From Geobacter metallireducens GS-15 (lineage in GTDB: Bacteria > Desulfobacterota > Desulfuromonadia > Geobacterales > Geobacteraceae): a stretch of 32,000 nt of DNA. Shown piece after piece: positions 4,133-32,000 of this stretch. A model generated the notes under the pieces. The model did no database searches. It saw only the letters and a program-made list of their open reading frames with translations, and had not been told where the DNA came from. The DNA is taken from contig NC_007517.1 of the NCBI RefSeq assembly GCF_000012925.1, positions 390,001-422,000 of the forward strand. Reading direction: 5' to 3'. Both the position numbers and the translations under genes were made by a program. Positions within the stretch are counted from its first letter, which is position 1. The number at the start of each line of letters is the position of its first letter.

Positions 4133-5175
4133 AACCGCTGCCGTAGCGCCAGGTGGAAGTTCACGTCCGGCGAGGTTTTCACGTTCAGATCCTCGGAAAG
4201 AGCGATGTCGAAGAAGGTCCGCTCCGTGAAGGCGAAGGAAAACCCTCCCGTCATGAGAAGGGAGTTGGTGCTGATTTCCCTCAGGTCACTCCCCTCGTAG
4301 AGGGAGGAATGCCACGTGGTCTGAACCGTAAGTGCCATCCAGTCGAGGGGGCTCCAGCCGAAGCCGAACGTCCCCATGGCCGCCAGGTTCCGCTGCTGGT
4401 CCCCGAGCACATCGCCATCCCCCATCACTGTGCCGCCGGCGTTGGCAAAGAGGGTCAGGTGCCCCCAGTCGCCGAGCCGGTAATCGTCGCTGGCGGCGAG
4501 CCAGAGGGCGAAGTCGACGCTGCCGCTTCCCCGCAGTTTGTCGCTGTCGCCGGTGGGGAGTTTCAGGGCACTCCGCAGGGCAACGCGGCGGGGGGCCGTC
4601 GCCCCGTCATCGTAGAGTTGGATTCCCCCCGTCAGGCGGATATCGCCGATACCTGCATTGCTGTCGTCGATCCTGAACCGATCGGTGCCGTTCGTGTCGT
4701 ACCGGTAGCGGAGCCGGTCCCGGGGAGCGTACTCCCTCCCGCCGTTGGTGAAGCCGAAGGCCTTGTGAAACCATTCGATGAAGCCGTCGAGGAATCCTCC
4801 CGACTGAACGATGAAGGGAATCTCAATGCCTGCCTCCACGCCGGGAACAAGGCCGTAGCGCAGATCGAGGGCGAACCGGTATGTCTCGCCGTCGAGGATG
4901 ATGTGCTCGTTCCCCTTGGAATCCACGGCGTAGTTGTTGGACAGATCGGCCACGGCGGAAACCTCGCCTTCCCTCGACGCCAGGATCCTGGCGCTGTCCG
5001 GCACCGGCAGACCGTGGATTTGCACGAGTGGCGCCATGTTCCCTGTCCGGAAGGGTGTGACTTCCATGCCGCGGGCAACCGTACCCGTGAGCAGCAGTGC
5101 CAGCCCGGCCATGGCCGCTCCTGCCCGTATCCGCCACGTCCCTGTCCGTTTCCCCGAACTACCGTTCATTGCCAT
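4129..5175 (-). CDS. Predicted outer-membrane beta-barrel protein (resembles the DUF3187 family from memory)
   Basis: 348-aa ORF. N-terminal signal peptide (RIRAGAAMAGLALLLTGTVARG). Alternating amphipathic Gly/aromatic-rich strands. C-terminal ...FHLALRQRF ends in Phe, as in BAM substrates. The family name is recollection, not a search result. Confidence 0.65.
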   Translation of the reverse strand: MAMNGSSGKRTGTWRIRAGAAMAGLALLLTGTVARGMEVTPFRTGNMAPLVQIHGLPVPDSARILASREGEVSAVADLSNNYAVDSKGNEHIILDGETYRFALDLRYGLVPGVEAGIEIPFIVQSGGFLDGFIEWFHKAFGFTNGGREYAPRDRLRYRYDTNGTDRFRIDDSNAGIGDIRLTGGIQLYDDGATAPRRVALRSALKLPTGDSDKLRGSGSVDFALWLAASDDYRLGDWGHLTLFANAGGTVMGDGDVLGDQQRNLAAMGTFGFGWSPLDWMALTVQTTWHSSLYEGSDLREISTNSLLMTGGFSFAFTERTFFDIALSEDLNVKTSPDVNFHLALRQRF

Positions 5176-5315
5176 ACCAGGCCCCCCCTGCGGAACAATG
5201 GCATATCCACGGCTGCCCTGTCCCTGAGATTCAATAACTATCTTGAACTGAAATGCGCATCTGCGCTAAGGTGAAACGTTATCGCCATCGTAGTATACCA
5301 GATTTGGAGACGCTC

Positions 5316-7841
5316 ATGACGCCTGCCAGCGGCAGACAGAACATTGACCCCCGGAATGTAAACCGGCGGAGAGACAAAAATCCATGGAAAGTTGTCGTCA
5401 TAACGCTCGTTACCCTTGGTGTTGTGGCCCTTCTCGCTGTGTTCGGCTATTTCACCTATCTTTACGCCTCCCTGCCGAAGGTCGACCGTCTTGCCGACTA
5501 CCGGCCTCCCATTGTTTCCCAGGTCTTTGGCGATGATGGCAGCCTTGTTGGGGAGTTTTACCTGGAGCGGCGCATCGTCGTGCCGGTGGAGAAAATTCCC
5601 CGGAAGCTGATCCAGGCTTTCGTGGCGGCCGAGGATTCCAACTTCTACCAGCACAAGGGGCTCGATTACCTGGGGATCGCCCGGGCCGCGGTGAAAAACC
5701 TCCTCGCTATGCGGAAGAAGGAGGGGGCGTCCACCATCACCCAGCAGGTGGCGAAGTCGATGCTTCTCACCTCCGAGAAGAGTTTTGCCCGCAAGTTCAA
5801 GGAGGCGATTCTTGCCACTCGCATGGAGAAGATGCTCTCCAAGGACGACATCCTCTACATCTACCTGAACCAGATCTATCTGGGGGGAGGCGCCTACGGG
5901 GTCCAGGTGGCTGCCGAGACCTACTTCGGCAAGAACGTGGAGCAGCTGAACCTGGCCGAGATGGCCATGCTCGCCGGGCTCCCCAAGGCCCCCAACTCCT
6001 ACTCTCCCATCAAGCACCTGGACCGGGCCCGGGAACGGCAGGCCTACGTCCTTGAGCGGATGGTAAGGGAGGGGTACGTGACCCAGGCCGAGGCGGACCA
6101 CGCCCGGGCGACCCCCATCGTGGTCAGGTCCATGAAGAAGGTAAACAGCGAGCAGTCGGCCTATTTCCTTGAGCATATCCGGATCAAGCTGGAGGAGACC
6201 TATGGGATGGACCGGCTCTACAAGGAAGGGCTGAAGATCTACACCACCATGAATGCCGAGATGCAGAAGGGGGCCTTTGATGCGGTGGTGAACGGCCTGA
6301 AAAACGTGGACAAGCGCCAGGGGTTCCGGGGAGCGGTCAAGTACCTTGGGGAAACCGAGGTGGATACCTTCAGTAAGAAAGTGGAAGACGGGATCGATAC
6401 CGCGTCCCTCAAGCAGGGGAGCACCTACCAGGGGGTCGTCACCGCCGTGGATCCGGCAAAGGGGGATGCAACCGTGCGGGTTGGAGACCGGACCGGCACC
6501 ATCTCCCGCAAGAACATGGCCTGGGCCGGCAAGGTGCAGCTTGTGAACGCCTGGGGCAAGCAGGACGGGAAAGGGAAGTCGCTCCCCTTGGGGAGCGTTG
6601 TCTTCGTTTCGGTGCTCACCCCTGATGTGAACAAGCAGGGGGCCATCTTCTCCCTGGACCAGGAGCCCGAGGCCCAGGCGGCGGTGGTGGCCCTTGATCC
6701 CCTGACCGGTGCCGTGAAGGCCATGGTTGGCGGGTATGATTTCCGCAGGAGCCAGTTCAACCGGGCCGTCCAGGCAAAGCGGAATCCCGGCTCTGCCTTC
6801 AAGCCGATCATCTACGCCGCCGCCCTCGACAAGGGGCTCACGGCGGCAACAACCTTCGACGACTCCCCCGTCGAATACGAGGGGGGCGGGGACAAGGCCT
6901 GGAAACCGAAAAACTACGACAACATCTATCGGGGCATCGTGACCATGCGCGAAGCCCTCACCAATTCCATCAACGTGGTGAGCGTCAAGATTCTGGAACA
7001 GATCGGCGTCGGCGCTGCCATCGACTATGCCAAAAAACTCGGCATCACCTCCCCCCTGGCCGCCAACCTTACCCTGGCCCTCGGTTCGTCCAGCGTGACC
7101 CCCCTTGAATTGACCTCCGCCTACGCCGTATTCGCCTCGGGAGGGTACCGGACAACGCCTTACTTCATCACCAAAGTGGAGGATGCCGACGGCAAGGTTT
7201 TGGAGGAGACGGCACCGCCGGTCATTCCGACCTTCACCAACCAGAGCACGGCCACCCTCACCAATGCAGACCTCCCACCCGCAACGGGCGCCGTTCCCGG
7301 GGGGGGAGCGGTACCGGCCATTGCGCCCGAAACCGCCTACATCATCACCAATCTCATGGAGAGCGTCGTCACGAGCGGCACCGGCCAGCGGGCCCGGGCC
7401 CTGGGCCGCCCCGTGGCGGGAAAGACCGGCACCACCAACGACATGAAGGACGCCTGGTTCGTGGGCTATGTGCCGCAGCTGGTGGCCGGGGTCTGGGTGG
7501 GGTACGATCAGGAGCGCTCCCTTGGCGCCGGAGGGTCGGGCGGGCAGGCCGCGGCACCCATCTGGACCGAGTTCATGCAGCGGGCCCTGGCGGGTATCCC
7601 CGTGAAGAACTTTATCCAGCCGGCGGACATCACGTTTGCCACCATCAATGTCCGCACCGGACGCCTGGCCCGGGAAGGGAGTCCGGGGGCGACTCAGGAG
7701 TGCTTTGTCGCCGGTACCGAGCCCACGGCGTACGATGGCGAGCAGGATACACCCACCACCGAAGAAAATGCCAGCGATTCCGATGGGTTGCCGGAATGGG
7801 TGCGCGCTGGGCGTCTGCCGCGACGGTCCGAAAGTCGCTAA
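5316..7841 (+). CDS. mrcA: Bifunctional penicillin-binding protein 1A (glycosyltransferase + transpeptidase)
   Basis: The preferred start is ATG 5316 (GGAGA 5 nt upstream); the track start at 5253 adds 21 aa with no RBS. There is a TM anchor. GT51 motifs: AEDSNFYQHKGLD and GASTITQQ. Transpeptidase motifs: SAFKP (SxxK), SIN (SxN), KTGTT. There is an OB-like insertion between the modules. Confidence 0.95.
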   Translation: MTPASGRQNIDPRNVNRRRDKNPWKVVVITLVTLGVVALLAVFGYFTYLYASLPKVDRLADYRPPIVSQVFGDDGSLVGEFYLERRIVVPVEKIPRKLIQAFVAAEDSNFYQHKGLDYLGIARAAVKNLLAMRKKEGASTITQQVAKSMLLTSEKSFARKFKEAILATRMEKMLSKDDILYIYLNQIYLGGGAYGVQVAAETYFGKNVEQLNLAEMAMLAGLPKAPNSYSPIKHLDRARERQAYVLERMVREGYVTQAEADHARATPIVVRSMKKVNSEQSAYFLEHIRIKLEETYGMDRLYKEGLKIYTTMNAEMQKGAFDAVVNGLKNVDKRQGFRGAVKYLGETEVDTFSKKVEDGIDTASLKQGSTYQGVVTAVDPAKGDATVRVGDRTGTISRKNMAWAGKVQLVNAWGKQDGKGKSLPLGSVVFVSVLTPDVNKQGAIFSLDQEPEAQAAVVALDPLTGAVKAMVGGYDFRRSQFNRAVQAKRNPGSAFKPIIYAAALDKGLTAATTFDDSPVEYEGGGDKAWKPKNYDNIYRGIVTMREALTNSINVVSVKILEQIGVGAAIDYAKKLGITSPLAANLTLALGSSSVTPLELTSAYAVFASGGYRTTPYFITKVEDADGKVLEETAPPVIPTFTNQSTATLTNADLPPATGAVPGGGAVPAIAPETAYIITNLMESVVTSGTGQRARALGRPVAGKTGTTNDMKDAWFVGYVPQLVAGVWVGYDQERSLGAGGSGGQAAAPIWTEFMQRALAGIPVKNFIQPADITFATINVRTGRLAREGSPGATQECFVAGTEPTAYDGEQDTPTTEENASDSDGLPEWVRAGRLPRRSESR

Positions 7842-22009: not shown

Positions 22010-22309
22010 ATGACAGAGTACCCTCTCCCCCTTTTTATCCTCAATCTCATCCTCACCCTTGTCGATGCCGCCATCGGCTACCACGTGGCGCCGATGATCA
22101 TGCGCCGCTTCACCCCCGACCCGGAGACGGCGGAGCTGTCGGTGCGGGGGATGCGGACCATGCTCGGCGGGGTGGTGGCTCTCTACATGTTTTTCAACTG
22201 TCTCGGGTACTTCCGGCAGAACGGCGTCATGCTCATGGTAGTGACCGCCGTCGTGGTGGTGGATATGGTGGCGCAGTTGGTGGTGCGGCGAAAGATCGGG
22301 AAGGGGTAG
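22010..22309 (+). CDS. Small (99 aa) membrane protein, unknown function
   Basis: The ATG lies 6 nt after the ftsK stop. Three hydrophobic segments. It is followed by a terminator. Confidence 0.55.
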   Translation: MTEYPLPLFILNLILTLVDAAIGYHVAPMIMRRFTPDPETAELSVRGMRTMLGGVVALYMFFNCLGYFRQNGVMLMVVTAVVVVDMVAQLVVRRKIGKG

Positions 22310-22346
22310 GCAGGGGCAAAAATATGGGAAAAGACTCGAATACTTG

Positions 22347-22377
22347 AACGCGGCGGGCTTTCCCGTCGCGTTTTTTT
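22347..22377 (+). terminator. Rho-independent terminator ending the plsC-ftsK operon
   Basis: AACGCGGCGGG cttt CCCGTCGCGTT (one G-U pair) followed by TTTTTTT. Confidence 0.75.
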
Positions 22378-22398: not shown

Positions 22399-23187
22399 CT
22401 ACTCCTCCAGCCTCCCCAAGATCCGCAGGAGACCGTCGAGGATGGTGAGGGGGTGGGGTGGACAGCCGGGGATGTAGAGGTCGATGGGGATGAGGCCGTC
22501 GGCGCCGTTGTGAACATCGGGGGAGTCGATGAAGGGACCACCGTTGATGGCGCAGGCCCCGGCGGCGATGGCGATTTTCGGCTCGGGGATCGCCTCCCAG
22601 GTCTTGAGGAGGGCGAGGTGCATGTTCTCGGTAACCGGGCCGGTGATGAAGATGCCGTCGGCATGGCGGGGGGAGGCAACGAACTGGATGCCGAAGCGCC
22701 CCAGGTCAAAGCCGACGGTGGAGAGGACGTTGGTGTCGGCCTCGCAGGCGTTGCACCCCCCTGCCGAGACCTCGCGGAGCTTGAGGGAGTGGCTGAAGAG
22801 GAATTGTCGCGTCGCGTCCAGGGGGGGGGCGAGCCTCCGGACCTCTCCGGACCGGACGATGAGGTCCTCCCGCCGGTTAACGGCCAGCCGGTGATCGCCA
22901 GTGAAAGAGATGGCGCCGTGGGGGCAGGCGCCGGCGCATTCAGGGCAGAAGAGGCATTTCCCCATGTCGAGGGCGAGGGTTTTCCCGGTCCCCGGTCCCT
23001 GGTCCCCGGTCCCGGCCGTTATGGCGCCATGAGGACAGGCGTTGGCACAGTCGGCGCACCCGCCGGGACACATTTCCGGATCCAGGAAGGGGGCCCCCCG
23101 GAAGAGTTCCGGCAGTTGCGCCGGCCCAGCGGGGTAGGCGATGGTTCGGTGTCCCTGGTGACGTCTGGCAAAGAGTGCCTTGAGCAT
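22399..23187 (-). CDS. Fusion of a 2x[4Fe-4S] ferredoxin module (HyfH/HycF/NuoI-like) to a NuoB/HyfI/HycG-type small subunit
   Basis: N-terminal half: CPGGCADCANACP and CLFCPECAGACP. C-terminal half: the NuoB-type cluster ligands GGCNACE, GACAINGG and IPGCPPHP. GGAGG lies 7 nt upstream of ATG 23187. Confidence 0.85.
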   Translation of the reverse strand: MLKALFARRHQGHRTIAYPAGPAQLPELFRGAPFLDPEMCPGGCADCANACPHGAITAGTGDQGPGTGKTLALDMGKCLFCPECAGACPHGAISFTGDHRLAVNRREDLIVRSGEVRRLAPPLDATRQFLFSHSLKLREVSAGGCNACEADTNVLSTVGFDLGRFGIQFVASPRHADGIFITGPVTENMHLALLKTWEAIPEPKIAIAAGACAINGGPFIDSPDVHNGADGLIPIDLYIPGCPPHPLTILDGLLRILGRLEE

Positions 23188-23210
23188 GGTGCGCCTCCCC
23201 TGGGGGGGAC

Positions 23211-24041
23211 CTATTCCGCTGCGGCCCCGCTATAGCCGAGTTTTACGGAGATGGTTTCGGCGGCTTTCTGGGCCAGGGGGACCAGTTCTGCGGCGACGCG
23301 CTCGTCGGAGAACCTCATGGTCGGCCCTGAGATGATGACCGCCCCGACCGTTTCAGTCCGGTAGTCGCGGATGGGGGCAGCCACCCCCCGGACTCCGATT
23401 TCAAGCTCCTCGTTGTCGATGGCGTAGCCGGCGGCGGCGATTTCCTTCAGGTGCTCCCGGAGCCGGGTGGCGTCGGTGATGGTGTTGGGAGTGAAGGGGA
23501 CCAGTTCCTTGCGGGCCAGGTAACGCTCAAGCTTCGGTTCGGAGAGGGAAGCGAGCATCACCTTCCCGGCGGCGGTGCAGTAAGCGGGCAGCCGGGAACC
23601 GAGTCGGGAGACGACCCGGACCGTGGCACGGCTTTCGACCCCGTAGAGGTAGATGCTCAGGTTTTCCTTAAGGATGGAAACGTAAGCGGTTTCATCGCAT
23701 TCCCTGACCAATTCCTCAAGAACCGGTTTTGCGTAGGGGAGGAGCGCCATCTGGCGGATCATGGTCTGGCGGATCTCAAGGGTTTTGAGTCCGAGCCGGT
23801 AGTTGCCGGTGACCCGGTTCTGTTCCACGTACCCCCGGGCCTCCAGGGTGGCCAGGAGCCGGAATACGTTGTTCTTGTGGAGCCTGAGCCGCTTTGCCAG
23901 TTCGGTTACGCCGAGCTCGGACACCCCTTCTCCGTGGAACTGCTCCAGGAGATCGAGGGCGTGGGAGACGGCAAGAATCATGTAATCGGATTTGTCTTTT
24001 TTCTGCACGGTGAGCCTCTGTCGGGTGGAGTGAAAAAGCAA
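23211..24041 (-). CDS. IclR-family transcriptional regulator embedded in the hyf-like operon
   Basis: N-terminal wHTH (ILAVSHALDLLEQFHGEGVSELGVTELAKRLRLHKNNVFRLLATLEARGYVEQ) plus an IclR-type effector-binding domain. The start is ambiguous: TTG 24041 (track), GTG 24008 (AGAGG 6 nt upstream; my preference) or ATG 23981. Confidence 0.9.
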   Translation of the reverse strand: MLFHSTRQRLTVQKKDKSDYMILAVSHALDLLEQFHGEGVSELGVTELAKRLRLHKNNVFRLLATLEARGYVEQNRVTGNYRLGLKTLEIRQTMIRQMALLPYAKPVLEELVRECDETAYVSILKENLSIYLYGVESRATVRVVSRLGSRLPAYCTAAGKVMLASLSEPKLERYLARKELVPFTPNTITDATRLREHLKEIAAAGYAIDNEELEIGVRGVAAPIRDYRTETVGAVIISGPTMRFSDERVAAELVPLAQKAAETISVKLGYSGAAAE

Positions 24042-24055
24042 ACCCGTCTCTTATA

Positions 24056-25564
24056 TCACAAATCGAACCCGCAGTAGGAGAGATTAAAACTCTTGTTGCA
24101 GAGGGGGAAGTCGGAAATCTGCTGATTCCGCAGGGCCAGGGCGAGTCCGGTCCAGTTGTGGAACGACGGGTCGACCACCTTGTAGCGGGCAAAACGGCCG
24201 GTGCCGTCGGTGATGGCAACGTGGCAGATCTCACCCCGCCACCCCTCGGTGAGAGCCACGGCCACGCTGTCCGGCGCAGGGGTGGCGGTATTCGTCACAG
24301 GAGGGCCGGCCGGCAACTGGCGGAGTTGCTCCGCTACGAAGTGGAGGGAGGCCTCCGCCTCGCGCCAGCGGACATGGGCCCGGGCAAAGACGTCACCGTT
24401 TTCCTCAACAGCCACGGCCACCGGACTCACGCCGTAGATGCCGAAGGGGGTATCCCGCCGCACGTCCCGGTCGATACCGCATGCCCGGGCCGCCGGACCC
24501 ACGAGGCCGATCTCCCGGGCCGTCTCCTGACTCACCTTTCCTGTCCCCTCGAAGCGGGCCATGACCGACTGGGTGTCCCAGAGGAGCCCCACCGCATTTT
24601 CCAGATCGTCGCTCGCGGCGGCGAGCCGATCGAGGAGCTCGCCCGCCTGCCGTTCGCCCACGTCGAAACCGACCCCGCCGGGGCGTACGATACCCCTGCC
24701 GAAACGGCTTCCACAGATATGGGCCGTCATGTTGAGGAAATCCCCCCTGATCCGGCCGCAGAAGGAGGCGGTGGGAAGATAGGCCACATCCCCGGCCAGT
24801 GCCCCCAGGTCGCCGGTGTGGTTGGCGAGCCGTTCCAGTTCCAGGGAGATGGCCCGGATGATCTCGGCCCGGGCCGACGGAACCGTCCCCCCGAGCGCCT
24901 CCATGACCATGGCATAGGCCAGGGTGTGGCCGATGGTGGTGTCGCCGGCGATGGTCTCCATCTGGAAGAGGGTTTTCGGGTGGGGGCCCTTCAGGATGCC
25001 CTCCTCAACCCCCCGGTGCTGGTAGCCGAGGGCAATCTCCAGGCTGAAGACCTCTTCGCCGTGGCACTGGAAGCGGAAATGCCCCGGCTCGATGATCCCT
25101 GCGTGGACCGGTCCCACCGCCACCTCGTGGATCTCCTCCCCCTCCACCCGGTAGTAGTCGGTGTCACCCGCCACTTTCCCGCCTAAACCTTTACGTGACG
25201 GCATGAAGGGGTGGTGGAACCGGACCGGCTTGGGCCAGGGGTGGGCCTCGGGGGTGATGCCGCACTGTTCGGCGATCTCCCGCTCGAAAAGGTGGAGTTG
25301 GGGGACGAGACGGCAGATGGAGGGAAAGGCCATTCCCGCCTCGGTTCGCATGAGCCCCAGAAGCCCGTCGTTGGGGGCGGCCATGAGGCACCAGAGGGTG
25401 GCGCCGGCGTCGGTGGGGACCCCGAAACAGGAGGCGACCCGCCATCCACGGTCGGTGGCGTCGATAATATCCTGGAGGAACTGTTCGAGGGGAAGGAGCG
25501 GCACCGAGGCCACCGGCACCGCCTCTCCGTTGCGCAGGCAGGTGAGGGAGAAGGTGCGGGTCAC
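24056..25564 (-). CDS. NuoC-NuoD / HycE / HyfG-like large subunit lacking the [NiFe]-binding cysteine pairs (Ehr-type)
   Basis: The GTG start at 25564 overlaps the upstream stop (GTGA). The 925-aa track ORF is an out-of-frame read-through into the HyfF-like gene. Hallmarks: FEREIAEQCGI (NuoC-like), GPVHAGIIEPGHFRF and LGYQHRG. The L1 position reads ETIAGDTTIGH instead of CGxCxxxH. The C-terminus reads SDFPLCNKSFNLSYCGFDL instead of DPCxxCxxR. Confidence 0.9.
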   Translation of the reverse strand: MTRTFSLTCLRNGEAVPVASVPLLPLEQFLQDIIDATDRGWRVASCFGVPTDAGATLWCLMAAPNDGLLGLMRTEAGMAFPSICRLVPQLHLFEREIAEQCGITPEAHPWPKPVRFHHPFMPSRKGLGGKVAGDTDYYRVEGEEIHEVAVGPVHAGIIEPGHFRFQCHGEEVFSLEIALGYQHRGVEEGILKGPHPKTLFQMETIAGDTTIGHTLAYAMVMEALGGTVPSARAEIIRAISLELERLANHTGDLGALAGDVAYLPTASFCGRIRGDFLNMTAHICGSRFGRGIVRPGGVGFDVGERQAGELLDRLAAASDDLENAVGLLWDTQSVMARFEGTGKVSQETAREIGLVGPAARACGIDRDVRRDTPFGIYGVSPVAVAVEENGDVFARAHVRWREAEASLHFVAEQLRQLPAGPPVTNTATPAPDSVAVALTEGWRGEICHVAITDGTGRFARYKVVDPSFHNWTGLALALRNQQISDFPLCNKSFNLSYCGFDL

Positions 25565-26994
25565 GGCACGTTTCCTCCTAATAGGGCCGCTCCTTCCGTA
25601 ATGAGGCGGCTGAGTGGTTCCGGTATCCAGATACCGAGCATGAGGACGACTCCCATAAGAATGAGCGGCGGCACCACCGTGAGGAAGCGGTCCCGGTAAC
25701 CGGTATGTTCGATGCGGCTCGATTCCCCCATCACCACCGGCAGGACCGTGCGCGCCATGCCGAGGAAAATGGCGGCCAGAAAAAAGAGGATGAGACCGCC
25801 GATCCACTCTCCTCCTTGGGTCATGGCGCTGGAGATGATGGAGAATTCGCTCACGAAGAGGCCGAAGGGGGGAGAGCCGGTGACGGCGAAGAACCCGGCC
25901 AGGAAGAGCCCTCCCGACCAGGGGAGACGCCGCAGTGCTCCCCGCACCTGCTCGCACCGTTTGCTGTTGTAGGAACGGTGGATGTTGGCGGCGGCCAGGA
26001 AGAGGACCCCCTTGGTGAGGCTGTTGTTCACCAGATGGAGGAGTGCCCCGGCCAGAGCCCCTTTGCCGAGCCCCAGGGCCACGGCCAGGATCCCCACATG
26101 CTCCACGCTGGAGTAGGCGAGCATCCGCTTGAAGTCGGCCTGGCGTGCCATGAAGACGGCGGCCGTGGCCATGGAGAGGAGGCCCATGAGGACAAGGGCG
26201 TCCCGGTGGAAGGTCGTCCCGTTGGCTGCCACGCAGACCTGGTAGGCCCGCAGGAGCCCCACGAAGGAGCAGGTCACGAGCCCTCCGGCCAGGAGCCCCC
26301 CCACGAGTCCGGGCGCTTCGCCGTAGGCGTCGGGCTTCCAGGTGTGGAGCGGCGCGAGCCCCATCTTGGTCCCGTAGCCCACGAGGAGAAACACGAAAGC
26401 CGCCTTGAGCCAGGCGGGGGAGAGGAGCCGCGCGTTCGCCACCAGGGGTTCCAGGAGAAGCGTCGGTTCGATCCGGGCCACCACGGTGGAGTAGGCCAGG
26501 AAGAGGAGCCCCAGGAGCGCCAGGGCGATCCCCACGGAGCAGATGAGCATGTACTTCCAGGTGGCCTCGATGGAGCGGGCGTTGCGGTTGAAGTAGAGGA
26601 GGGGGGTCATGGTGAGGGTGGTCGTCTCGATGGCCACCCAGAGGAGCCCCAGGTGGTGGGCAAAGGCCACGAGCGTCATGGCCGAAAGGCAGACCGGTAG
26701 CATGGCGCAGAGGAGGCGGTTCGGCCGTTCCCGGCGGTAGGCGAGATATTCCACGGCATAGAGCCCGGATGCGAAAAAGAGAAGGCTCACGGAGAGGAGT
26801 ACGAGCTTCCCGATGGCGTCCAGGTGGAGCCACATCCCCACCGAAGGGGATGTGGGGGTGAGTGCCGCCTCGATCGTCAGGGCCAGGTGGAGCGTCCCGA
26901 CGACGGGAAGCACCCAGGGACGGCTCCGGTCAGAAGGGATGAGCCAGGCCGTGATGGCGCCCAGAAGCGGTATGAGGAGGATGCCGGTAATCAT
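25561..26994 (-). CDS. NuoN/NuoM / HyfF-like antiporter-type membrane subunit
   Basis: 477 aa and polytopic, with typical complex I / Mrp antiporter-like sequence (…VEHVGILAVALGLG…, …GLAPLHTWKPDAYGEAP…). Confidence 0.9.
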   Translation of the reverse strand: MITGILLIPLLGAITAWLIPSDRSRPWVLPVVGTLHLALTIEAALTPTSPSVGMWLHLDAIGKLVLLSVSLLFFASGLYAVEYLAYRRERPNRLLCAMLPVCLSAMTLVAFAHHLGLLWVAIETTTLTMTPLLYFNRNARSIEATWKYMLICSVGIALALLGLLFLAYSTVVARIEPTLLLEPLVANARLLSPAWLKAAFVFLLVGYGTKMGLAPLHTWKPDAYGEAPGLVGGLLAGGLVTCSFVGLLRAYQVCVAANGTTFHRDALVLMGLLSMATAAVFMARQADFKRMLAYSSVEHVGILAVALGLGKGALAGALLHLVNNSLTKGVLFLAAANIHRSYNSKRCEQVRGALRRLPWSGGLFLAGFFAVTGSPPFGLFVSEFSIISSAMTQGGEWIGGLILFFLAAIFLGMARTVLPVVMGESSRIEHTGYRDRFLTVVPPLILMGVVLMLGIWIPEPLSRLITEGAALLGGNVP

Positions 26995-26995
26995 G

Positions 26996-27634
26996 CTAGT
27001 CCCTGAGGGTGGTGAGCCGCGACGTGTCGATGGACGAGAACTCGCGGCTGATCTGGTTGATGATGATCCCCATGACGAAGATGCCGACGATGAGGTCCAG
27101 CAGGACCCCCGCCTCCACCATGACTGGCATCGCCTCGGTCAGGAGGAGTCCAAAGAGGAAGATACCGTTTTCCAGCATCAGGTAACCGATTACCTGAGAG
27201 ATGGCTTTACGCCGGGTCACCAGCACGATGAAGCCGGTGAGGAGCGTGGCGATGGCCGCCGGCACGAAGAGGAGCCCCTGGTGCTCCGGAGCCAGGGGGA
27301 GGCGGGCGGCGAAGACAAAGGAGAGCCCCGTCGTGATGGCGCCGATGAGAAGCGTCGGCACATACCCCAGGTAGGGCTCCATCTCCCGGGATATCCGGGC
27401 CCGGACGATGGCGCCGGTCAGAAGCCACGGGATGATGATTCCCTTTGCCAGGATGAGGCCGCCGGTAATGACCACCAGGTGCCAGGAGAACGAGTGGACG
27501 AGGATCGGGAGGATGCCGAGGATGACCCCTTGGATGGCCACGGCGCGGATCGCCACGGCCAGGCGCCCCGAACCGAGGGCCGCGAAGTTGATGAGCATCA
27601 CGAGGACGATGAGCTGGTCCACCAGGGAAGTCAT
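26996..27634 (-). CDS. HyfE-like small polytopic membrane subunit
   Basis: 212 aa with about 6-7 TM segments. Size and position (between the HyfC-like and HyfF-like genes) match E. coli hyfE. The gap to its neighbours is 1-3 nt. Confidence 0.8.
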   Translation of the reverse strand: MTSLVDQLIVLVMLINFAALGSGRLAVAIRAVAIQGVILGILPILVHSFSWHLVVITGGLILAKGIIIPWLLTGAIVRARISREMEPYLGYVPTLLIGAITTGLSFVFAARLPLAPEHQGLLFVPAAIATLLTGFIVLVTRRKAISQVIGYLMLENGIFLFGLLLTEAMPVMVEAGVLLDLIVGIFVMGIIINQISREFSSIDTSRLTTLRD

Positions 27635-27637
27635 GGT

Positions 27638-28546
27638 CTACCTCAGCACCAGGAGCAGCGAAAACGCCGCCAGGATGCAGGCCGCCGCCAGCATCTGGGG
27701 GACCTTGGGGAGCCGCAGCCGTGCCATGACCGATTCCACCATGCCGATCCCCACGGCCAGCATCATCATGGCGATCACGAAGAGGACCCAGTCCACCACG
27801 GGGATGCCGGTGGCATAGGGGAGGGCGATGTCGGTGAACAGGGCACCCAGCACGAAGAGTTTCAGGGCCGCCCCGTAGAGGATGGCGCCGAAGAGGGGGC
27901 CGCTGTGGTCGAGCACCATCACCTCGTGGATCATGGTCAGTTCCAGGTGGGTGGTGGGGTCGTCGAAAGGGACCCGGCAGTTCTCGGCCAGGAGCACGAT
28001 GAAGAGGCTTCCCACCAGCAGGAGGAGCGATGCGCCGGCCGAAAGCCAGGAGGTGGCGGCAGTCCCGGTCAGCATGGGGGTCAGGGAGAGGGAGCCGGAG
28101 AGCCGTGCCAGCACCGCCAGGGAGAAGAAGAGGGCCGGCTCGGCCAGGCAGGCGAAGGTGGCCTCCCGGGCCGCCCCCATCCCCTCGAAGCTGGAACCGG
28201 TATCCAGGGCCGCCGCCGTGGTGCAGAAGCGGGCCAGCCCGAAGAGATAGGCGAAGAGGATCATGTCGCCGCTGAAAGAGAGAGGGGGGCGGTGCTCCCC
28301 GAGGGGGATCAGGAGCGAGGCCACAAGCGTTGCCGCCAGGCCCGCCACTGGTCCCGCCCGGAAGACCCAGCTCGTGGTTTCGCTGAAGACCGACCCCTTG
28401 CGCACGAGCTTTGCCAGGTCGTAGTACGCTTGAAAAAGCGGTGGACCGGTGCGGCCTGCAAAGATGGCCTTGGTCCGGTTGATCACCCCGAGCAGCAGCG
28501 GCGGCATGAGCAGGGTAATCAGGATATGGATAACGGCGTCGACCAT
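27638..28546 (-). CDS. NuoH / HycD / HyfC-like membrane subunit
   Basis: 302 aa. The N-terminal ...GVINRTKAIFAGRTGPPLFQAYYDLAKLVRKG is the conserved NuoH/HycD loop. AGGAG lies upstream. Confidence 0.9.
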   Translation of the reverse strand: MVDAVIHILITLLMPPLLLGVINRTKAIFAGRTGPPLFQAYYDLAKLVRKGSVFSETTSWVFRAGPVAGLAATLVASLLIPLGEHRPPLSFSGDMILFAYLFGLARFCTTAAALDTGSSFEGMGAAREATFACLAEPALFFSLAVLARLSGSLSLTPMLTGTAATSWLSAGASLLLLVGSLFIVLLAENCRVPFDDPTTHLELTMIHEVMVLDHSGPLFGAILYGAALKLFVLGALFTDIALPYATGIPVVDWVLFVIAMMMLAVGIGMVESVMARLRLPKVPQMLAAACILAAFSLLLVLR

Positions 28547-28561
28547 TCCCTTCCTGCTCCT

Positions 28562-30571
28562 TTAATAGGCCCACGCCAGCAAGAGCGCCAGCGTCACGAA
28601 GATGTAGAGGATATAAAGGTGGAGCCGGCCGTGCTGGAGCTTGCGGGCCAGAGAGAACCTCCGGTCCATGGCCGAGAGGAGCGGCGTGATGACCAGTTCC
28701 AGTACCGCTTCGGGAACATGGCTCGAAAAGGCGCTTTTCCCCGGGAAGAGGCCCTGAACCTTGGGCGGGTGGACCCGGGGGCGGAGCACCGCGGCGAATA
28801 GGTTCACGAACATCTCTGCAAAGGAAGAGGCGGTGTACTGCATCCGGACAGTGGGACGGGCAAAGCCGCAGCCCCAGGTGCCGACTCTCCCCCGAGGTTG
28901 ATCCGTTACCCGCTTCCAGAGCCAGGCGCCGATGCCGAGAATCGCCAGAAGGAGGATGAGCCCCATGAGGGTAATCCAGCCAAAGGGCGCCGCATCCGCC
29001 AGCCGGACGCCGGCAAAGGGGAGCTGGGGGCTCCAGGCAAAGAGGGCCGGCTCCAGAAAGCGTGGGAGTGCCACGGGGAGGAGGCCGATGGCTGCGCAGA
29101 GTATGGCAAGGAGCATCATGGGGCCCCGCATGGCCCACCCCGGTTCGTGGCACCCGGCCGCGTCGGACGACCGGGGTAACCCCAGGAAGACCGTGCCGAA
29201 TACCTTCACGAAGCAGAGGACCGCCATCCCTCCCACCATGGCCAGGGCCGGCGCCGCCAGCCCCAGCAGGGGGGCCGCGGCCCCCTTTTCCTGCACGAGG
29301 CCGGAGAAAAAGCCGAGATAGACGAGAAGCTCACTCACAAAGCCGTTCAGGGGGGGGAGTCCGCAAATGGCCACGGCGCCGGTGAGAAAGAGGGCCGCGG
29401 TCCAGGGCATCCGTCGGCCCAGCCCGCCGAGGCTGTCGATCTCCCGGGTCCCAGCCTCGTGAATTACCGCACCGGCCCCGAGGAAGAGGAGGGACTTGAA
29501 AAGGGCGTGATTCAGGATATGGAGAAGCGCCCCCCCGAGCCCGAGGACCACCAGGAGCGGCAGTCCCGCTCCCCTGCCGATGAGGGCAACGCCGAGCCCC
29601 ATGACGATGATGCCGATGTTTTCGATGCTGTGGTAGGCCAGGAGCCGCTTCAGGTCGTGCTGTCCCACGGCAAAGGCAACCCCGAGGATTCCCGACACAA
29701 TTCCCGCCATAAGAAGAACCATCCCCCACCAGGGCGGGACCACTCCGAAGAAGGAGAGGATGCGGACCATGCCGTAGATTCCCATCTTGATGAGGACTCC
29801 CGACATGAGGGCCGACACGTGGCTCGGTGCGCTGGCATGGGCGCCCGGGAGCCAGACGTGAAGCGGCATCACCCCTGCCTTGAGGCCAAAGCCCAGGAGA
29901 GCGGTCACGAAAATGGCGGCCCCAAGGGGAGTTGTTCCGTCCAGCGCCGTTGTCGCAGGAAATGAAAAGGAACCGGCAGTCGCTTTTAGCAGGGAGAAGC
30001 AGGCGAAGAGGGTGAGGGTGCTTGCGTGGGTTGCCACGAGATAGATGAGGGATGCGTCTCGAACCTCCTGCTCCAGATCGTCGGTGGCGAGGGCAAAGTA
30101 GGCGGAAAGGGCCATGATCTCCCAGAAGATGAGAAAAAGGACTCCGTTCCGGGCCAGGGGGACCAATGCCAGGGAAGCGGCGAGGACGCCGAAGAAAAAG
30201 GTGAGCCGCGGTGCCGTGCGGGGGTGGTGGCTGGCGGGCCAGTAGCCGATGCCGTACACGGCGCAGCAGGCGCTGACGATGAAGACGGGGAGGAGGAAGA
30301 AGGCGGAGAGCGGGTCGATGCCGGCCTCAAGGGGGCCGAAGGGAAGCGAGCTTACGAGGGTGTAGGAGACGGTCCGTTCAGTAAAGAGCGTTGCCAGGGC
30401 ACCGATGATTCCCAGGATGGAGCCGAGAACGACGGTGAGAGAGGCGCATTTCTGCCCCCAGTCCAGCTTCTTGGGGAGAAAAAGGCCCGGAATGCCCGAC
30501 GCGCCGATCAGGAGCGCGCCGGCTATGACCAGGCTGACAGGATTGTCAGGCCCTGCCGTTGATGCTTCCAT
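28562..30571 (-). CDS. NuoL / MrpA / HyfB-like antiporter-type membrane subunit
   Basis: The preferred start is ATG 30571 (GGAGA 7 nt upstream), giving 669 aa. The track start at 30634 adds a Cys/Arg-rich 21 aa with no RBS. Typical motifs: WEIMALSAY and LLAYHSIENIG. Confidence 0.9.
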   Translation of the reverse strand: MEASTAGPDNPVSLVIAGALLIGASGIPGLFLPKKLDWGQKCASLTVVLGSILGIIGALATLFTERTVSYTLVSSLPFGPLEAGIDPLSAFFLLPVFIVSACCAVYGIGYWPASHHPRTAPRLTFFFGVLAASLALVPLARNGVLFLIFWEIMALSAYFALATDDLEQEVRDASLIYLVATHASTLTLFACFSLLKATAGSFSFPATTALDGTTPLGAAIFVTALLGFGLKAGVMPLHVWLPGAHASAPSHVSALMSGVLIKMGIYGMVRILSFFGVVPPWWGMVLLMAGIVSGILGVAFAVGQHDLKRLLAYHSIENIGIIVMGLGVALIGRGAGLPLLVVLGLGGALLHILNHALFKSLLFLGAGAVIHEAGTREIDSLGGLGRRMPWTAALFLTGAVAICGLPPLNGFVSELLVYLGFFSGLVQEKGAAAPLLGLAAPALAMVGGMAVLCFVKVFGTVFLGLPRSSDAAGCHEPGWAMRGPMMLLAILCAAIGLLPVALPRFLEPALFAWSPQLPFAGVRLADAAPFGWITLMGLILLLAILGIGAWLWKRVTDQPRGRVGTWGCGFARPTVRMQYTASSFAEMFVNLFAAVLRPRVHPPKVQGLFPGKSAFSSHVPEAVLELVITPLLSAMDRRFSLARKLQHGRLHLYILYIFVTLALLLAWAY

Positions 30572-30657
30572 GGATGGTCTCCGGGAGAGGCAGAAGCGCT
30601 GTGTGTGGTCGCAGCACTCGCGGTGTGACGCCATTTTACTGGTGCGTACCTTTGCGG

Positions 30658-30686
30658 ACTATACGTCCTTAGGGAAAATGCGTCAA
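30658..30686 (-). promoter_or_regulatory. Candidate sigma70 promoter of the hyf-like (Ehr-type) operon
   Basis: On the minus strand: TTGACG (30686-30681), a 17-nt spacer, then TATAGT (30663-30658). A second overlapping TTGACT lies 7 nt upstream. The predicted leader is about 80 nt to ATG 30571. Confidence 0.5.
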
Positions 30687-31097
30687 TAGTCAAGTGGAGT
30701 CTGCCGCTGACAATGGTGGCGCGCAATGGCGGGTGAGACAAGGTTTTGCTTAACGGGTTTCGTTGAGATGGATTTGCGATAATTCCTGTTGACAAGAGGG
30801 GAGGAATCGGATTACTTATAGATCTGTACGACCTCATATTTGTCCATTGGAAATACCCCCGGCGTTCTTTCATTCCTTTACAAATCAGGCGCTCCACTCA
30901 AAACCATAATCAACGTGCGTCGCTACGCCTATTCGGAAAAGTTACGACATTCGATTACATAAGAGCACAGATTCCACGTATCCACAAACAGGTGCGTTTC
31001 CCGCTTTCGTTACGTTCAGTTATCCGATGAATGACCCCGACAATGAGCCCGCCATCATTCAGCAACTATCCCGTTGCGCCCGTCCACAGGAGAACCG

Positions 31098-32000
31098 ATG
31101 AATCTTCAGGAGCTTAAAGGCAAAAAAATCAATGAGCTTGCGGCAATCGCCAAGGGCCTCAACATCGAGGGTGCCTCAAGCCTGCGCAAGCAGGATCTGA
31201 TTTTTGCCATCCTCAACGCCCAGACCGAGAAAAACGGTATGATCTTCGGCGAGGGGGTCCTGGAATGTCTTCCCGACGGCTTCGGCTTTCTCCGGGCGCC
31301 GGACTACAACTATCTGCCGGGGCCTGACGATATCTATGTTTCTCCTTCTCAGATTCGCCGGTTCAACCTCCATACCGGCGACACCGTTTCCGGCCAGATC
31401 CGCCCCCCCAAGGAGGGGGAGCGCTACTTTGCCCTCCTCAAGGTGGAGACGGTCAACTTCGAGCCACCCGAGGTGGCCCGGGATAAGATCCTCTTCGATA
31501 ACCTCACTCCCCTTTATCCCGACGAAAAGCTGAAGCTGGAGACCGCGCCGGATAATATGCCGATGCGGGTCCTGGAGCTCGTCTCTCCTATCGGCAAGGG
31601 GCAACGGGGCCTCATTGTGGCGCCGCCCCGCACCGGCAAGACGATGCTCATCCAGAACATCGCCAACTCCATTGCGGAGAACCATCCCGAGGTCTACCTG
31701 ATCGTCCTTCTCATCGACGAGCGCCCCGAAGAGGTTACCGACATGCAGCGCTCGGTCCGGGGGGAGGTGGTTTCCTCCACCTTCGACGAGCCCGCCACCC
31801 GCCACGTGCAGGTAGCCGAGATGGTCATCGAGAAGGCGAAGCGCCTCGTGGAGCACAAGCGGGACGTGGTGATTCTCCTCGACTCCATCACCCGCCTCGC
31901 CCGGGCCTATAACACGGTGCTCCCCCCCTCCGGCAAGATCCTCACCGGCGGCGTGGACGCCAACGCTCTCCAGAAGCCGAAGCGCTTCTTCGGCGCGGCC
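31098..32000 (+). CDS. rho: Transcription termination factor Rho (N-terminal 301 codons; continues past the right edge)
   Basis: Hand translation from ATG 31098 gives [117 protein letters not shown]... It contains Walker A PPRTGKT and [13 protein letters not shown]. It is absent from the ORF track because there is no stop in the window. Confidence 0.97.

Follow-up and report, generated by a model that had tools for sequence, protein, structure and literature searches.

The stretch of DNA analysed here (the window) comprises 32,000 nt of Geobacter metallireducens GS-15 NC_007517.1, and a further 10 kb beyond its rho side was also inspected (42 kb). It contains seven co-directional minus-strand open reading frames (ORFs), which span 22399-30634 when the longest ORFs are taken. 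Judged by its sequence, this locus was shown to be the ehrABCDLS operon of G. metallireducens GS-15, with an iclR gene inserted between ehrL and ehrS. From the residues of its large subunit, the Ehr complex cannot be a [NiFe] hydrogenase. We consider, with a confidence slightly above even, that the whole is best explained as an oxidoreductase that is built like formate hydrogenlyase (FHL), couples to ferredoxin, translocates ions and acts on an acceptor that we leave unnamed.

The operon itself is not a discovery, as its annotation is many years old. All seven products were identical to consecutive GenBank entries of G. metallireducens GS-15 (ABB30612-ABB30618). In UniProt (Q39YQ6-Q39YR2), six of the seven were named as subunits of an "Ech-hydrogenase-related complex" and the seventh as an "IclR family" regulator; the same curator name stood on ABB30612 and ABB30614-ABB30618. 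G. sulfurreducens is the organism in which the Ehr class was defined, from GSU0739-0743 and GSU0745 and possibly also GSU0734 (PMC4667449), and the first description of the class is credited to Coppi 2005 in PMC7894505 and PMC13194489. The cassette has been named ehrABCDLS in other phyla (PMC6688271), and the name and gene order are also found in PMC4667449. Because the exact proteins are named Ehr in public records and the cassette has been published, the locus is an already annotated, known cluster of a known class. The paper on the G. metallireducens genome does not use the words 'hydrogenase' and 'IclR' in its main text. A preliminary description of the window had placed the locus in the Ehr class and held the substrate and role of that class to be unestablished. 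The placement was borne out by the public names and by a large subunit that has neither metal ligands nor a C-terminal extension, and the accessible literature still gives the function of Ehr as unknown (PMC10284858, 2023; PMC7894505).

The large subunit EhrL (24056-25564, minus strand, 502 aa, ABB30614) consists of a NuoC-like N-terminus and a HycE/NuoD-like large subunit. It matched the Pfam family Complex1_49kDa (5e-39), and its best match in the PDB was HycE of 7Z0S (5.7e-44, HMMER), with MbsL much weaker (1e-20). The HycE segment RVCGICGFAH was aligned to TIAGDTTIGH of EhrL, and DPCYSC to NLSYCG. Thus, the residues of EhrL at the four [NiFe] cysteine positions were A206, T209, S496 and G499, the last two being mapped by ungapped extension of the HMMER alignment. 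For comparison, related loci were surveyed with one genome per species. This gave 80 loci with an EhrL 55-81% identical to the query and flanks of up to ±10 kb, some of them on truncated contigs. Among 81 aligned family members, S496 and G499 were both found in 81/81, A206 in 74/81 and T209 in 76/81. The end of EhrL (...CGFDL) aligned with the ...CTDR of mature HycE, and the C-terminal extension was absent in 81/81. Because A206, T209, S496 and G499 stand at the ligand positions and no C-terminal extension is present, Ehr is not a [NiFe] hydrogenase. The ligand-less large subunit of the preliminary description was therefore confirmed at all four cysteines, and the intact ligands of a group 4 enzyme were not what we found.

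Several features would nevertheless suit a true group 4 [NiFe] hydrogenase of the Hyf/FHL-2 type that evolves H2 and whose maturation and formate dehydrogenase genes would lie elsewhere in the genome. Hydrogenase-4 (FHL-2) of Escherichia coli is encoded by hyfABCDEFGHIJR, with the order B C D E F G H I. In the direction of transcription, Pfam and NCBIfam gave HyfB-, HyfC-, HyfE-, HyfF- and HyfG-like products, IclR and a fused HyfH+HyfI for the operon. This order matches that of hyfB, C, E, F, G, H and I and lacks HyfD, so the hyf order minus one antiporter subunit was recovered as first described. The best NCBIfam matches were Hyf models (HyfB, HyfE and HyfF for EhrA, EhrC and EhrD), and the best solved homologues were subunits of E. 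coli FHL. The invariant EhrL motifs EPGHFRF, HRG and WRGE are hydrogenase-like, and in G. sulfurreducens the level of Ehr proteins is higher on formate (PMC7894505). However, the four Ni/Fe cysteine positions are replaced, which refutes a hydrogenase at the sequence level, and the C-terminal extension for HycI-type processing is absent. The profile classification that had been proposed as a check gave domain assignments in Pfam and NCBIfam that agree with the Hyf order, but all Hyf equivalog scores were below the NCBI curated cut-offs. No HyfA/HycB, FdhF, hyp or hycI genes were found within 42 kb. Compared with E. coli hydrogenase-4, ehr also lacks HyfA, HyfD, HyfJ and HyfR, its HyfH and HyfI are fused, and it has neither the [NiFe] cysteines nor the C-terminal extension. 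We give this explanation almost no credence.

In the family alignment of 81 sequences, the residues E159, D208, H213, R443 and C498 of the putative pocket were strictly invariant, and so was D259. Long stretches were invariant across phyla (VGPVHAGIIEPGHFRFQCHGE, ELERLANH, CGRIRGDFLN, EGWRGE and SDFPLCNKSFNLSYCG). Six cysteines were specific to Ehr: C167, C269, C489 and C498 were kept in 81/81, C284 in 80/81 and C447 in 75/81, and all six were absent at the aligned positions of HycE, MbhL and Nqo4. An AlphaFold2 monomer model of EhrL (pTM 0.85) gave a template modelling (TM) score of 0.82 to HycE (7z0s_E) and of ~0.76 to E. coli NuoCD. We also considered whether every type of Ehr has these cysteines and rejected this, as the unfused subtype at locus L022 keeps only C489. 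There, a second Ehr-like cluster (L022:636-4199) lies immediately upstream of the cassette and has a HyfF-like gene as well as genes for a large subunit of 529 aa and an unfused small subunit of 171 aa. This second large subunit is also ligand-less (VSGDSTVAH; CNKSFNQSYSGNDL) and has lost most of the subtype-specific cysteines. Unfused small-subunit genes were also found upstream of the cassette in L006, L007 and L012.

The other subunits of the complex were assigned as follows. EhrA (28562-30571, minus strand, 669 aa) is an antiporter-type membrane subunit of the HyfB/HycC/NuoL kind. It matched Pfam Proton_antipo_M and the NCBIfam HyfB model NF005086 (580 bits, against a cut-off of 667), and its best PDB match was HycC (8e-74). 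The motifs WEIM, LKAGVMPLHVWLP, LIKMG and FKSLLFL were present, and EhrA keeps the Glu of transmembrane helix (TM) 5 and the Lys of TM7, TM8 and TM12. EhrD (25561-26994, minus strand, 477 aa, ABB30615), the second antiporter-type membrane subunit, is HyfF-like (NF005044, 1.7e-94, 318 bits against a cut-off of 610), and its best PDB matches were MbsH (3e-27) and MbhH (6e-24). Of the charged residues, EhrD has the Glu of TM5 and the Lys of TM7 and TM12, whereas the Lys of TM8 is replaced by Thr. EhrB (27638-28546, minus strand, 302 aa, ABB30617) is a HycD/HyfC/NuoH-like membrane subunit with the Pfam domain NADHdh. Its best PDB match was HycD (1e-31), and NuoH homologues reached ~1e-6. EhrC (26996-27634, minus strand, 212 aa, ABB30616) is a HyfE-like membrane subunit (NF008556, 8.8e-23, 81 bits against a cut-off of 136), for which the sequence search returned no solved homologue.

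EhrS (22399-23187, minus strand, 262 aa, ABB30612) is a fusion of a HyfH/HycF-like domain for two [4Fe-4S] clusters with a HyfI/HycG/NuoB-like small subunit (Pfam Fer4_7 and Oxidored_q6). Its first ~113 residues matched HyfH/HycF, and residues 144-259 matched NuoB/HyfI. The NCBIfam HyfH score was 69 against a cut-off of 270, and the PDB matches were HycG for the C-terminal half (6e-32) and HycF for the N-terminal half (6e-17). The proximal-cluster cysteines C145, C148, C212 and C242 aligned with those in GGCNGCE, GAC and GCPP of HycG. All 12 of the 12 cysteines for three clusters, eight in the ferredoxin domain and four proximal, were present and conserved. As these cysteines and the charged residues of EhrA and EhrD are kept, the three-cluster wire and the two antiporter-type modules are intact. 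The architecture of the complex is thus shown by sequence to be that of formate hydrogenlyase and hydrogenase-4, with EhrA plus EhrD, EhrB and EhrC in the membrane part and EhrL plus EhrS as the peripheral arm.

Every subunit with a solved homologue was closest to FHL (7Z0S) or MBH/MBS, not to complex I. E. coli FHL-1 (HycBCDEFG-FdhF, 7Z0S) was the closest solved homologue of EhrA, EhrB, EhrL and both halves of EhrS. In FHL-1 itself, a HyfE-like subunit and a second antiporter-like subunit are missing, and it has a HycB and FdhF donor and a [NiFe] site. Ehr looks like an FHL/Hyf complex from which the dehydrogenase and HycB have been removed, with the HycF-like domain fused to the small subunit. 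MBH (6CFW) supplied the second-best solved homologues (MbhL, MbhJ, MbhM and MbhH). Ech and MBH likewise work without a dedicated dehydrogenase module, but they reduce protons at a [NiFe] site, which Ehr does not have. MBS/MBX of Pyrococcus furiosus (6U8Y) is also derived from a hydrogenase, translocates ions and makes no H2, and its MbsH was the best solved match for EhrD. Its catalytic subunits were more distant (MbsL 1e-20, MbsM 7e-10, MbsJ 5e-21), weaker than the FHL and MBH matches. MBS/MBX has a different and larger subunit set than Ehr, the Mbs gene set counting 13 subunits against six structural genes in the ehr operon.

Complex I (Nuo/Nqo) shares common ancestry and the same fold with Ehr in its NuoB, C, D, H and L/M/N-like subunits. 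The operon might encode a paralogue of complex I with fewer subunits, which would work between NADH or ferredoxin and quinone as an oxidoreductase of the Nuo/NDH-1/Fpo kind. The Pfam and NCBIfam matches to the NuoB, NuoC, NuoD, NuoH and NuoL/M/N families, the fold of EhrL relative to E. coli NuoCD and the many respiring bacteria among the hosts would all fit. The equivalent of Asp139 of Nqo4 is also kept, as the invariant D259. Other residues speak against it. His38 and Tyr87 of Thermus thermophilus Nqo4, which we take to be the ligands of the quinone headgroup, correspond to I158 and G207 of EhrL (ungapped HMMER alignment, offset 120), and both residues were invariant in the 81 sequences. Ehr has no NADH module, and NuoE/F/G, NuoA and NuoJ/K were not found in the operon or its flanks (window plus 10 kb). 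An adjacent Nuo set, which would have made the operon a paralogue of nuo, was thus not seen in that range. As the solved-homologue scores were also much better for FHL, MBH and MBS, a complex I paralogue seems improbable.

The survey showed that the cassette is widely distributed. The host taxa included Geobacteraceae, other Desulfuromonadales, Myxococcota, Planctomycetota, Verrucomicrobiota and Acidobacteriota, and further Methylomirabilota, Spirochaetota, Fibrobacter, Latescibacterota, Riflebacteria and others. The six structural genes were on one strand and in the same order in 60/80 loci, and most of the remaining loci were truncated contigs. The synteny that the preliminary description had wished to see surveyed therefore extends across many phyla. 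The fusion of HyfH and HyfI was found in all 73 of the 73 aligned EhrS sequences (244-285 aa). Neighbouring genes were compared by all-against-all clustering of ORFs; a gene caller based on GC content at third codon positions was set aside as too noisy, and clusters of antisense shadow ORFs were disregarded. A gene of ~480 aa that resembles GAPDH (Gp_dh_N and Gp_dh_C, with an N-terminal extension) follows ehrS in the same direction in nine loci, mostly of the Geobacteraceae/Desulfuromonadales type (L009, L010, L012, L015 at 4362-5825, L017, L020, L022, L023 and L033). It is not present in the window.

Fdh, NuoEF and HycB-type genes were not recurrent among the ORF clusters of the 80 loci. The lack of a donor partner thus belongs to the Ehr family as a whole and is not peculiar to the window. 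The preliminary description had noted this absence for the window, and it can now be extended to the family. Such a state would be expected if the fused ferredoxin-like domain is the point of electron entry. Alternatively, the operon could encode the membrane module of a supercomplex of formate dehydrogenase (or another dehydrogenase) with Ehr, the donor being encoded in trans. A complex of this kind has been hypothesised for Riflemargulisbacteria and Saganbacteria from gene proximity (PMC6349859), the Ehr subunits of G. sulfurreducens are raised on formate (PMC7894505), and the closest solved architecture, that of FHL, operates with a dehydrogenase donor. The genes do not favour it, because fdh, nuoE/F and hycB-like genes are absent in the window plus 10 kb and do not recur in the survey. 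In addition, the HycF-like domain fused to the small subunit could take electrons from ferredoxin directly, as in Ech and MBH. We regard a dehydrogenase supercomplex as quite unlikely.

In Ech and MBH, ferredoxin donates electrons directly to the subunit with two [4Fe-4S] clusters. We propose ferredoxin exchange for Ehr because this subunit is homologous to the HyfH-like domain of EhrS. A low-potential soluble carrier, most likely ferredoxin, would dock on that domain, and with the ferredoxin-accepting domain fused to the small subunit, a separate donor module would not be needed. Electrons would pass through both ferredoxin-type clusters, go on to the proximal [4Fe-4S] cluster in the NuoB-like domain and then reach a remodelled, protonatable pocket at the interface of EhrL, EhrS and EhrB. 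This putative pocket would keep E159 as the glutamate of the hydrogenase proton path, R443 as the canopy-type arginine and H213 as the L1 histidine, and D208, T209, S496 and C498 would take the place of the metal ligands. An acceptor other than H+ would be reduced there. For Geobacter, menaquinone would be the first to consider, with a soluble compound or a sulfur/thiol compound as the alternative; no positive sequence evidence for a non-quinone substrate was found. The redox step would be coupled to the movement of H+ or Na+ through EhrA and EhrD. The reverse direction is also possible, in which the membrane potential would drive the reduction of ferredoxin.

Several points weigh against a ferredoxin-coupled oxidoreductase of this kind. 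The accessible literature contained no biochemical data on any Ehr complex, and the donor, acceptor, ion and direction are all ones that we infer. The predicted local distance difference test (pLDDT) score of the EhrL model fell below 50 exactly at the segments that would form the pocket, the invariant hairpin 133-182 and the C-terminus 484-502. This is consistent with segments that need the rest of the complex or a cofactor to become ordered. EhrS of two loci, L005 (Geobacter argillaceus) and L016, lacks C40, C44, C47 and C84, so the two-cluster entry path is not universal; in these two proteins the ferredoxin-like domain could bind at most one of its two clusters. For a quinone acceptor in particular, the invariant Ile158 and Gly207 at the His38 and Tyr87 positions of Nqo4 are unfavourable, and EhrB is far more HycD-like than NuoH-like. 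Other Ehr types also occur in organisms reported to be without quinone synthesis (PMC6349859) and in bacteria of the candidate phyla radiation (PMC7304191).

The only recurrent neighbour outside the cassette was a protein of ~235 aa with an HTH_17 and a PTS_EIIA_2 domain (HTH+EIIA). Its gene was directly upstream and co-directional in 46/68 loci with a complete ehrA (e.g. L042:2321-3028 and L031:4247-4960; a minus-strand example is L005:3488-4171), and in 6 more loci it was upstream of a divergent second ehrA. The phosphorylation-site motif GxGIAIPH was kept in 54/57. No mention of this gene beside ehr was found in the literature examined. Its presence suggests a control of Ehr of the PTS(Ntr) type in most phyla.

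PTS-EIIA(Ntr) systems are tied to K+ and ion homeostasis in E. coli. An HTH and PTS-EIIA(Ntr-like) regulator in front of the cassette in most lineages would therefore agree with another view, in which the main task of Ehr is cation/proton antiport in pH or Na+/K+ homeostasis and the iron-sulfur arm would sense redox state or act as a gate instead of carrying electrons to a catalytic site. The charged residues of the two Mrp-type subunits are intact, a recognisable acceptor site is lacking in the sequence, and a role in pH homeostasis has been proposed for ehrABCDLS in Methylacidiphilum (PMC6688271). However, the pocket residues are invariant and the 12 cluster cysteines are conserved in most lineages, a degree of conservation that a sensor would not seem to require. 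The small Mrp subunits MrpB, C, E, F and G had no match in Pfam or NCBIfam, and the operon contains only two MrpA/D-like subunits. It seems rather doubtful to us that Ehr is mainly an antiporter.

A further question was whether the complex is still a working one. All seven ORFs were intact, and compared with L001, the 81%-identical relative, all seven genes had dN/dS = 0.15-0.22 (iclR 0.147). EhrL was 55-81% identical across Geobacter, Planctomycetota, Verrucomicrobiota, Myxococcota and others. Proteomic studies of G. sulfurreducens have found Ehr subunits, with raised levels on formate and in syntrophic co-culture (PMC7894505, PMC8691401). In contrast, a 2026 paper described the Ehr of G. sulfurreducens KN400 as non-functional and drifting, with missense mutations in ehrA-2 and ehrB over 17 years of electrode growth (PMC13194489). 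A non-functional hydrogenase remnant under relaxed selection would account for those mutations, for the lost catalytic metal ligands and for the fact that no phenotype of Ehr is known. The low dN/dS values, the long invariant stretches and the proteomic detection oppose a relic, and they point to an ehr operon under purifying selection. The intact ORFs with these dN/dS values in fact refute it. The identity of EhrL between Geobacter-type relatives and distant phyla (55-68%, with long invariant motifs), the iron-sulfur cysteines and antiporter Lys/Glu residues, the six-gene order in 60/80 loci and the subunits seen in both proteomic studies are all contrary to a relic. We consider it very improbable that the operon is a dead one.

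The iclR gene (23211-24008, minus strand, 265 aa, GTG start, ABB30613) encodes an IclR-family regulator with the Pfam domains HTH_IclR and IclR_C. Among the window and the 80 loci, an iclR between ehrL and ehrS was found only in the window, L001 and L005-L007; it was also present in close G. metallireducens relatives in the protein collection. This restricted distribution makes it a lineage-specific insertion. The preliminary description had spoken of a seven-gene operon; the six structural genes are indeed the family cassette, but iclR is not a part of it. The published descriptions of the G. sulfurreducens Ehr (GSU0739-0743 and GSU0745) give the same six structural genes in the same order and a ligand-less large subunit. 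The G. metallireducens locus differs by iclR between ehrL and ehrS and by the absence of ehrA-2 (GSU0734-type) and HTH+EIIA from the window and the next 10 kb. A tblastn search of the window found neither a second ehrA nor an HTH+EIIA gene, none was found in the 10 kb beyond, and L001 also lacks both. In the G. metallireducens lineage, where IclR replaces the HTH+EIIA regulator of most other lineages, ehr expression is probably tuned by the IclR-type, metabolite-sensing regulator encoded within the operon. A search for inverted repeats of >=10 nt found none in the promoter region or in the ehrL-iclR and iclR-ehrS junctions, and so gave no candidate IclR operator.

Upstream of ehrA, a sigma-70-like promoter candidate, TTGACG-N17-TATAGT, lies at 30658-30686 on the minus strand. 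It was the only sigma-70-like match in 9.3 kb. As shuffled sequences gave 1.4 matches, the match alone is not significant. L001 keeps both hexamers (TTGACA-N18-TATAGT) in otherwise poorly alignable intergenic DNA, which gives the candidate some support. The "single good promoter" of the preliminary description thus exists as a consensus match at 30686-30658, but the number of matches is at chance level, and it is a candidate promoter that need not be the only one. The divergent rho-ehrA intergenic region (30572-31099) is unusually long (528 nt). Two blocks in it are shared with L001, TTGTCAA(C/T)A and CCTTGTCTC, upstream of the promoter-like site, and these could be sites for a regulator. Rfam gave no match in the whole window at the gathering threshold, nor in the 528-nt region at E <= 1, so a riboswitch or leader RNA was not supported. 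At the other end, a GC-rich hairpin with a 12-bp stem lies at 22346-22373, between the ehrS stop and the convergent ftsK-side unit, with a T-run on the plus strand. It is a possible bidirectional terminator, which the ehr transcript might also use. A single ehr transcript is plausible. The hairpin follows a 99-aa ORF at 22010-22309 (plus strand), directly after ftsK, with a weak MatE match (4e-6); this ORF could encode a small membrane protein or represent a fragment of a gene.

The seven minus-strand ORFs of the preliminary description were all recovered, and so were its junctions of 15, 3, 1, -4, 14 and 23 nt when the longest ORFs are taken. From the sequence and the database entries, two starts are to be corrected. 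The longest ORF of ehrA is 28562-30634, and its database start is the ATG at 30571 (exact-sequence look-ups gave the product only in its 669-aa form, and the IclR protein only in its 265-aa form); a GGAG ribosome-binding site and this ATG are kept in L001, the closest relative, but the ATG at 30634 is not. The longest ORF of iclR is 23211-24041, and its database start is the GTG at 24008, with AGAGG 6 nt before it. With this start, the gap between ehrL and iclR is 47 nt, not 14. The GTG start of ehrL overlaps the ehrD stop (GTGA). The operon is flanked on one side by ileS, lspA, a PBP1 gene, an AsmA-like gene, the RNase J gene and ftsK and on the other side by rho, followed beyond the window by rpmE, thyX, prfA, prmC and hisGD, in agreement with the housekeeping flanks noted before. 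The absence of maturation and donor genes also held, as no hyp, hycI, fdh or CO dehydrogenase gene was found in the 32-kb window or the further 10 kb.

The locus adds no new kind of system, being the annotated ehr operon of a model organism. Ehr complexes, which are related to complex I and to the energy-converting hydrogenases, are widespread and strongly conserved, and they are a real open problem of bioenergetics. What is added here is evidence of purifying selection, against the recent claim of a non-functional Ehr, and the finding that across 80 genomes no donor module is conserved beside the cassette. The listed invariant residues that are specific to Ehr can serve as targets for mutation, and there are two regulatory handles for a genetically tractable host, the IclR encoded within the operon and, in most other lineages, the HTH+EIIA protein. 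A bolder reading can be formulated, which we find unlikely. The Ehr subtype with a fused small subunit would be an active ferredoxin-linked ion pump in at least 10 phyla. Its former NiFe pocket would have been rebuilt as a new catalytic or cofactor site (C167, C269, C284, C447, C489 and C498 with E159, D208, H213 and R443). The link between ehr expression and central metabolism would, in most lineages, be the phosphorylatable HTH+EIIA regulator and, in the G. metallireducens clade, an IclR sensor, encoded within the operon, of an intermediate of organic-acid or aromatic pathways. If this is true, Ehr could be the missing route by which Geobacter and many respiring bacteria re-oxidise ferredoxin, or reduce it at the expense of the membrane potential.

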